Part shown: positions 58,687-58,830 of the stretch, piece by piece
Layout: each line of letters begins with the position of its first letter
How positions within the stretch are numbered: the stretch's first letter is position 1
DNA from: Paecilomyces variotii
Lineage: Eukaryota
Assembly (NCBI GenBank): GCA_004022145.1
Contig: RCNU01000018.1
Length of the DNA: 64,000 nucleotides
Direction: 5' to 3' (one strand)
Made by a program: the position numbers and the translations under genes
The notes under the pieces: generated by a model
The model's input: only the letters and a program-made list of their open reading frames with translations
The model's database searches: none
What the model was told of the DNA's origin: nothing

Positions 58687-58830
58687 TGCCCCCACGCGGG
58701 ATCGAACCGCGGGCCTCAGTATATCGAGGTATAATACAACTAGGATCTATTAGTAACAATGAAATAGGAGGTGTTTTTGAGAGGTAAATCTTAACATACG
58801 TACTGCGCTCTACCACTGAGCTATAAGGGC
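58687..58830 (-). tRNA. tRNA-Thr (predicted UGU) with a 60-nt spliceosomal-type insertion and a 12-nt canonical intron
   Basis: Intact A box, B box (GGTTCGATCCC) and acceptor, D, anticodon and T stems. Segments: 58830-58800 exon; 58799-58740 GTATGT...ACTAAT...CTAG; 58739-58735 TTGTA; 58734-58723 intron; 58722-58687 exon. Confidence 0.8.

Follow-up and report, generated by a model that had tools for sequence, protein, structure and literature searches.

On the minus strand of a 64,000-nucleotide (nt) stretch of Paecilomyces variotii DNA (assembly GCA_004022145.1, contig RCNU01000018.1), referred to here as the window, a transfer RNA (tRNA) gene of the Thr(UGU) type, located at 58830..58687, carries 72 extra bases in the anticodon loop of a complete Thr-type body. 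These bases fall into two separate inserts: one of 60 nt, featuring signals which, as far as sequence can tell, are those of the spliceosome, and one of 12 nt, located at the canonical position of nuclear tRNA introns. The observation is real and far beyond chance. We consider it reasonably probable that the gene combines the 12-nt intron of its family, at the 37/38 position, with an acquired 60-nt intron of the U2-type GT-AG class, at the 32/33 position, and that its transcripts would be matured in two steps. Removal of the 60-nt insert from RNA in vivo is rated somewhat higher than this full explanation, and the production of a working tRNA somewhat lower. The interpretation put forward in a previous analysis of this DNA, made from the letters and called here the sequence-only reading, is partly supported, by RNA evidence that is direct but thin and by a second, independent example.

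Structure of the gene and of its two inserts

The letters at 58687-58830, read on the minus strand, match those transcribed in the sequence-only reading, and the layout described there was confirmed by re-reading letters and coordinates. All elements of the 144-nt gene (Rfam tRNA model 1-71, 46.1 bits) lie on the minus strand. A 5' exon of 31 nt (58830-58800), containing an intact A box (TAGCTCAGTGG, 58823-58813), is followed, directly after C32, by the 60-nt insert (58799-58740), which is assigned to the spliceosomal type by its signals and by one joint found in an RNA run. The five bases TTGTA (58739-58735) then provide U33, the anticodon UGU and A37, and precede the 12-nt insert (58734-58723), putatively of the tRNA-endonuclease type, which ARAGORN reports as i(37,12). 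The 3' exon, 36 nt long (58722-58687), includes an intact B box (GGTTCGATCCC, 58708-58698), and a run of seven T, resembling an RNA polymerase III (Pol III) terminator, is found 16 nt past the gene (58670-58664).

The Rfam tRNA model spans 58687-58830 end to end, scoring 46.1 bits (gathering score 29), and assigns 78 nt to the loop. In the scan of the whole window with Rfam the gene fell under the fast filters, and it was also missed by the default tRNA finder. When introns were allowed, ARAGORN interpreted the unspliced gene as Ser(cga), with a 72-nt intron at position 31, a reading that leaves a U at position 37 and places the serine anticodon on a body whose variable loop is short. Once the 60 nt had been taken out in silico, the same program recognized tRNA-Thr(tgt), interrupted at position 37 by 12 nt: excision does restore C32-U33-UGU-A37, as the sequence-only reading had maintained. 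Removal of both inserts leaves a predicted product of 72 nt, the length previously given. Minimum free energy folding of the three forms gave no cloverleaves, and this result was not used.

All features of a Pol III gene are present, namely the A box, the B box, the downstream run of seven T and the lack of any internal run of four T, the longest T run within the 60-nt insert being of three. The distance from A box to B box, start to start, is 115 nt; in yeast, a spacing of such size is tolerated. The sequence-only reading had drawn attention both to the absence of four consecutive T in the insert and to the terminator-like run after the gene. Both statements are true, but the former is not telling, as 5 of the 7 candidate introns of messenger RNA (mRNA) genes in the window lack such a run as well.

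The 60-nt insert begins with the donor GTATGT (58799-58794), contains the motif TACTAAT (58755-58749), whose presumed branch A, at 58750, lies 10 nt before the last G, and ends with the acceptor TAG (58742-58740). A rule by which an interval must open with GTRNGY, close with YAG and hold CTRAY with the A 6-30 nt from its end was satisfied by just 4 of the 127,880 60-mers found in the window on both strands, and the insert is among the 4. The effect of excision was evaluated by removing each interval fitting the rule and submitting the joined flanks to ARAGORN. In 213,285 bp, comprising both strands of the window and of 26 related metagenome loci described below, 326 candidate intervals were found, and a full tRNA was obtained across the junction at just two loci, those of the window insert and of a metagenome locus, L009. 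A looser scan, in which every GT..AG interval of 35-130 nt was removed from the window and the loci (150,974 candidates), revealed no third case: of 71 junction-spanning calls, all those outside the window gene and L009 were contributed by intact tRNAs or by tandem arrays (L017, L020 and the Ser genes of L003/L007).

Candidate mRNA introns of the window, defined as intervals whose excision fuses two open frames, each 70 codons long or more, were found at 7 distinct sites. They are mostly 54-73 nt long, start with GTATGT, GTGAGT or similar sequences, contain CTAAC or CTAAT and end with CAG or TAG. The insert matches them in size and signals, in line with the mRNA-like donor, branch and acceptor that the sequence-only reading had recognized; its branch A is nearer to the acceptor, 10 nt from the end versus 12-17 nt in the window candidates, measured there to the nearer acceptor. 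In a bulge-helix-bulge, a helix of 4 bp is flanked by bulges of 3 nt at the two cut sites; the insert forms just 1 of the 4 central pairs of such a motif, and, in view of this lack, the tRNA endonuclease is an unlikely agent for the removal of the 60 nt.

The hexamer GTACGT (58803-58798), which overlaps GTATGT and starts 4 nt upstream of it, is a further potential donor. Splicing from this site would take away part of the anticodon stem; the listed joint, discussed in the following section, uses 58799. This second donor exists solely owing to the T of a compensatory change in the anticodon stem, described below.

The gene family was collected by scanning metagenome contigs with a 22-nt stretch of the 5' exon. 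The CAGCAC variant of this stretch, present in a paralogue located elsewhere in the window, identified the 26 loci, while the CAGTAC variant of the window gene itself was found in 0 contigs of the same scan, which provided no orthologue of the exact gene. Two loci, L017 and L020, were left out of the family count, being intron-free tRNA clusters of bacterial or organellar look. The remaining 24 are Thr(UGU) or Thr(CGU) genes, and all of them (24/24) feature an intron directly after position 37, 5-39 nt long, with 15 distinct sequences. Because every relative is interrupted at that very position, we take the 12-nt insert of the window gene as the ordinary tRNA-type intron of the family. Canonical tRNA introns follow an anticodon-intron pair rule, by which position 32 pairs with the base at -3 of the intron, and present a 3' bulge. 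The 12-nt insert conforms to this class in both respects: the G at -3 is able to pair with C32, as the sequence-only reading had pointed out along with the 37/38 location; the central helix is made of 2 out of 4 pairs and the outer helix of 4 out of 4.

The predicted mature sequence is undecayed, being identical to that of L016 at 65 of 72 positions and to that of L018 at 67 of 72. Compared with all family loci and with the paralogue, the anticodon stem features a two-sided change, from C-G to U-A (U30-A40). The paralogue is a Thr(TGT) gene at 29061-29120 on the minus strand (Rfam 38.6 bits), whose loop, CTTGTAA, is interrupted by neither kind of intron; it has lost the T arm and is therefore regarded as dead, a pseudogene. 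The compensatory nature of the change, CAGCA/TGCTG in the paralogue versus CAGTA/TACTG in the window gene, had been stressed by the sequence-only reading and is real, but the decay of the sequence used for comparison had gone unremarked. A run of nine T is still present after the paralogue. In L016, the Thr(UGU) gene, which contains a 32-nt intron, is followed after 29 nt by a tRNA-Gly(GCC) gene (2742-2945, plus strand), with no T run in between, and the two are possibly a dicistronic tRNA pair.

Spliced and unspliced forms in public sequencing runs

Public runs were searched with the region 58300-59300. The matches were to single-organism runs, with 32-34 million letters of contigs, and to food-fermentation metatranscriptomes. 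The contigs of four runs were aligned to 58500-59000: X1 and X3, both from study P1 and labelled as RNA, X7, a metatranscriptome from study P4, also labelled as RNA, and X15, whose kind is not on record and which is probably genomic DNA, with zero differences from the window.

One contig of X7, at a depth of 17.4, joins 58739 to 58800, skipping exactly 60 bases. The skipped segment has the ends CT..AC on the plus strand, which correspond to GT..AG on the gene strand, and the joint, whose shorter side is of 25 letters, has no positional ambiguity. The contig keeps the 12-nt intron; for this and for the exons, no differences from the window are listed. Since either side of the joint is at least 25 letters long, the whole 12-nt intron is covered, and since the sequence of this intron varies among relatives (15 sequences in 24 genes), the joined contig comes from this locus or from a very close allele. 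X7 also has unspliced contigs spanning the two junctions, and a 415-nt contig that stops precisely at 58739, the point at which spliced and unspliced sequences should diverge. The proposal of the sequence-only reading, that the spliceosome acts before the tRNA splicing endonuclease (SEN), is thereby supported in one part, a form lacking the 60 nt and retaining the 12 nt being found in one contig of one RNA-labelled run; the 60-nt joint is absent from X15, X1 and X3, whose contigs cross the insert unbroken.

The same joint bears on the possibility of a single 72-nt tRNA-type intron, cut by the endonuclease alone, which the sequence-only reading had mentioned as an alternative and which we judge very improbable. 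Read at 37/38, such an intron would leave the anticodon UAU with G33 and G37; read at 31/32, it would leave CGA with U37, in agreement with the Ser(cga) call, i(31,72), obtained by ARAGORN on the unspliced gene. In the unspliced RNA, the two bases preceding the 3' bulge are potential partners of C32 and G33 (2/4 central and 4/4 outer pairs), which makes a ruler-guided cut conceivable. However, both resulting loops break near-universal rules, which call for U33 and for a purine at 37, and either would equip a Thr-type body, whose variable loop is short, with an anticodon for Ile or Ser. Removal in two steps yields instead exactly the loop of the family, and the joint observed in X7 skips 60 nt, not 72.

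On the two-step reading, maturation would start with transcription of the locus in the sense direction, and sense-strand RNA is indeed indicated by an X7 contig which ends at 58754 and continues with 19 untemplated A on the gene strand. The 60 nt would then be removed exactly, from GT to AG, with the 12-nt intron still in place, as in the joined contig; the signals point to the spliceosome as the agent. The tRNA splicing endonuclease and the ligase would subsequently remove the 12 nt, and RNase P, RNase Z and CCA addition would complete the ends, by analogy with the rest of the family. Pol III may well be the maker of the precursor, given the A and B boxes, the run of seven T and the absence of four consecutive T in the insert, and the intron-bearing U6 gene of fission yeast offers a precedent. 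Read-through by RNA polymerase II (Pol II) is also possible, as suggested by the A-tailed fragment and by an X7 contig extending past the terminator. RNA reaching the endonuclease unspliced could be cut at the usual sites, giving the UAU loop with G33 and G37, and such a wasteful side reaction is conceivable: the helix at these sites is as good in the unspliced form as in the proper substrate, with 2/4 and 4/4 pairs in both.

The A-tailed end at 58754 is located 4 nt before the presumed branch A. The fragment could be a decay product of the insert, tailed by RNA surveillance, or could represent a Pol II 3' end.

X1, X3 and X7 share differences from the window at 58536, 58539 and 58771, and, as all three carry the insert in addition to these shared base differences, the insert occurs in at least two lineages. 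A strain-specific insertion in a silent pseudogene had been named by the sequence-only reading as a finding that would speak against its interpretation; the insert was instead detected in these three runs, which differ from the window by several single bases. Within the insert, lineage differences are a G to C change at 58771, common to X1, X3 and X7, and a lengthening of the A run at 58773-58778, by 1 or 2, in X7. Altogether, the insert has 3 differences, against 0 for the 84 nt that exons and 12-nt intron make up and 0 for the splice signals, numbers too small for a test of selection.

Several observations weigh against the two-step reading. The joint is found in one contig, from one run of one study, out of three RNA-labelled runs from two studies and one probable DNA run compared. 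X1 and X3 are labelled as RNA, yet show the unspliced form only; they may be mostly DNA, as their contig breaks and depths resemble those of X15. In X7 the A run of the insert is found in at least two length variants (+1 and +2), from which it follows that this run contains more than one allele or copy, and the same joint would result from an insert-free allele in the X7 community. Neither half of the joined contig appears in the table of contig pieces. A 61-nt record has 36 letters on 58804-58839 and 25 unplaced ones; its break is 4 nt off the listed joint, a displacement matching the offset of the GTACGT donor. No joint removing 58723-58734, no joint running backwards along the gene and no mature form were found in the four runs compared; mature tRNAs are in general poorly captured by libraries of this kind. 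Finally, the spliced molecules may be by-products of Pol II transcription that are never turned into a tRNA. The 415-nt contig of X7 starts, on the gene strand, at the acceptor, passes the run of seven T and reaches below 58500, so that at least part of the RNA (or DNA) in X7 does not represent Pol III transcripts stopping at the terminator. No depth is recorded in X7 for the bins at 58840-58890, a hole which proves nothing.

These observations lend some weight to the idea of a dead gene, in which intron-like DNA, brought in by reverse splicing and reverse transcription, by an introner-type transposon or as filler DNA, silenced a redundant tRNA-Thr gene, and the source of the joint is an allele or copy free of the insert in the mixed X7 community, or else Pol II read-through RNA that is incidentally spliced without ever giving a tRNA. 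We consider it unlikely, although a serious contender. It accommodates the occurrence of the joint in a single contig of one run, the presence of several alleles or copies in X7, the contig extending past the terminator and the A-tailed fragment ending inside the insert; moreover, the other Thr(UGU) copy of the window is a pseudogene, which indicates that the family does decay here, and the mature sequence of L009 is common to 7 other loci, which indicates that such copies can be redundant. On the other hand, the contigs of X15, X1 and X3 offer no insert-free form, and the exons, the A box, the B box and the terminator are all intact, while the stem change is compensatory. The presence of the insert in lineages differing at several flanking bases implies that it is not brand new, and it is hard to obtain from random insertion two independent inserts, each with three well-spaced signals and each leaving a perfect tRNA upon removal.

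The contig running from the acceptor past the run of seven T, along with the one bearing 19 untemplated A, would also fit a locus co-opted into a spliced, polyadenylated Pol II non-coding RNA, whose tRNA-like part serves as a processing signal or is a relic. This seems to us improbable. Contigs are unable to show the ends or the strand of a transcript, and the tRNA parts are kept perfect, which is needless for a mere relic. Also against it, no open reading frame (ORF) of at least 80 amino acids is present in 56829-59345, and Rfam detects no known RNA family besides tRNA at 58500-59000.

In X15, a 394-nt unitig covering 58557-58950 has two alternative continuations at each end, and the segment containing the interrupted gene probably lies in two genomic contexts. 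A corresponding fork is found in X1 at 58811-58840.

A second interrupted gene and the genomic neighbourhood

L009, the only other locus at which excision of a rule-fitting interval produced a full tRNA, is found on metagenome contig Ga0265797_10022588. Its Thr(UGU) gene, located at about 5096-4954 on the minus strand, is interrupted by a normal intron of 15 nt following position 37 and by an additional insert of 56 nt (4959-5014 in plus-strand coordinates) within the 3' strand of the acceptor stem. On the gene strand, this insert starts with GTACGT, contains ACTAAC, with the A 11 nt before the end, and terminates with CAG. Its longest T run is of three, and a run of five T follows the gene. 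In the unspliced form the gene is scored 39.1 bits by Rfam, with two acceptor pairs broken. Once the insert is removed, the mature sequence matches, without a single difference, those of 7 other loci; these feature four different 37/38 introns and no such insert. The window insert and the L009 insert have no sequence in common, and L009 is an independent second case, unrelated to that of the window.

The finding of a second case among just 24 related genes suggests that the phenomenon is not unique. We tentatively put forward a wider hypothesis, somewhat more doubtful than the reading proposed for the window gene: spliceosomal introns may be a recurrent and overlooked interruption of nuclear tRNA genes in filamentous fungi, occurring anywhere in the gene, with some tRNAs needing first the spliceosome and then the endonuclease, and with tRNA finders filing the genes as pseudogenes or under a wrong anticodon.

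Other genes for small RNAs are located downstream of the window gene, on the same strand: a tRNA-Ile(AAU) gene at 57533-57606 and a 5S ribosomal RNA gene at 56968-57087. Further on, also on the minus strand, an ORF at 55126-55986 encodes a protein of the Peptidase A4 family, of the fungal type. A second tRNA-Ile(AAU) gene, of equal score, is found at 23205-23278 on the plus strand, 5.8 kb from the dead Thr paralogue; its presence may be a trace of an ancient duplication involving an Ile-Thr pair. Upstream of the interrupted gene lies an inverted repeat of 30 nt (59033-59062 and 59207-59236), identical at 29 of 30 positions.

Comparison with known introns

Textbooks and reviews treat spliceosomal and tRNA introns as unrelated classes, residing in different kinds of genes. 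PMC12530127 describes the three nuclear intron types as apparently unrelated and places the spliceosomal ones in Pol II transcripts, and PMC10275265 contrasts the spliceosomal and the tRNA splicing machineries. Full-text searches of the literature, with most subscription journals and supplements outside their scope, did not bring up any paper describing a nuclear tRNA gene with a spliceosomal intron. Spliceosomal tRNA introns are likewise not mentioned in the accessible parts of PMC10946435, PMC3978253, PMC4090602, PMC11782384 and the preprint 10.64898/2026.07.09.736142. A 2018 review (PMC5855946) lists, in the sections at hand, spliceosomal introns in the U6, U2, U5 and U1 small nuclear RNAs (snRNAs) and in ribosomal RNA, with no tRNA in the list, and describes the determinants of insertion into non-coding RNAs as unclear.

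The closest parallel is offered by the introns in the U6 genes of Schizosaccharomyces pombe and other fungi (and in those for U1, U2 and U5), where, as here, GT-AG ends and a branch site are found in a small structured non-coding RNA, U6 being moreover transcribed by Pol III from a gene with internal promoter elements (PMC5855946). The introns of snRNA genes are thought to arise by reverse splicing. In the present case the host is a tRNA, which lies outside the spliceosome, so that closeness to the catalytic centre, the explanation advanced for U6, cannot account for the insertion. If the proposed reading is correct, the gene would provide a clean, small system in which to study the gain of spliceosomal introns in non-coding RNA. 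The window precursor also differs from U6 in bearing a second intron, of an unrelated class. A further parallel is given by the spliceosomal-type introns of ascomycete nuclear ribosomal DNA, which similarly interrupt fungal genes other than those for Pol II mRNAs and are scattered across lineages (PMC5855946). Their host, however, is a long Pol I transcript, with no second splicing system acting on the same small molecule.

Canonical nuclear tRNA introns lie at 37/38 and are removed, in fungi, by the endonuclease and the Trl1 ligase. The 12-nt insert fits this class by position; the 60-nt insert, in contrast, is found at 32/33, is devoid of a bulge-helix-bulge and features GT, branch and AG signals, which that class does not need. 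Multiple introns, and introns at positions other than 37/38, are known in the tRNA genes of archaea, Cyanidioschyzon merolae and nucleomorphs, as documented in PMC3978253 and PMC4090602, and resemble the present arrangement in both respects. For all of those introns, the cut is made by the tRNA endonuclease at a bulge-helix-bulge, a motif missing from the 60-nt insert.

Introner-like elements are short, recently gained spliceosomal introns of fungi, able to land in new places. Such elements exist as many near-identical copies in one genome; in the window and the 26 loci (213 kb), no further copy of either the window insert or the L009 insert was detected. Group I and group II introns interrupt tRNA genes of organelles and bacteria, and those of group II are spliced, like spliceosomal introns, through a lariat. 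Both groups, however, consist of self-splicing ribozymes of several hundred bases, and the 60-nt nuclear intron of the window is too small for a ribozyme.

If the proposed reading holds, the spliceosome would be able to act on a tRNA precursor, and a 144-nt RNA would offer a natural case of two splicing systems working in order. Counts of fungal tRNA genes would, in addition, miss or mislabel genes of this sort, as happened here with the default finder and with the Ser(cga) call of ARAGORN. The interrupted gene is best filed with the spliceosomal introns of non-coding RNA genes, a known kind, of which it would represent the first instance in a tRNA gene, lying beside an intron of the tRNA type.

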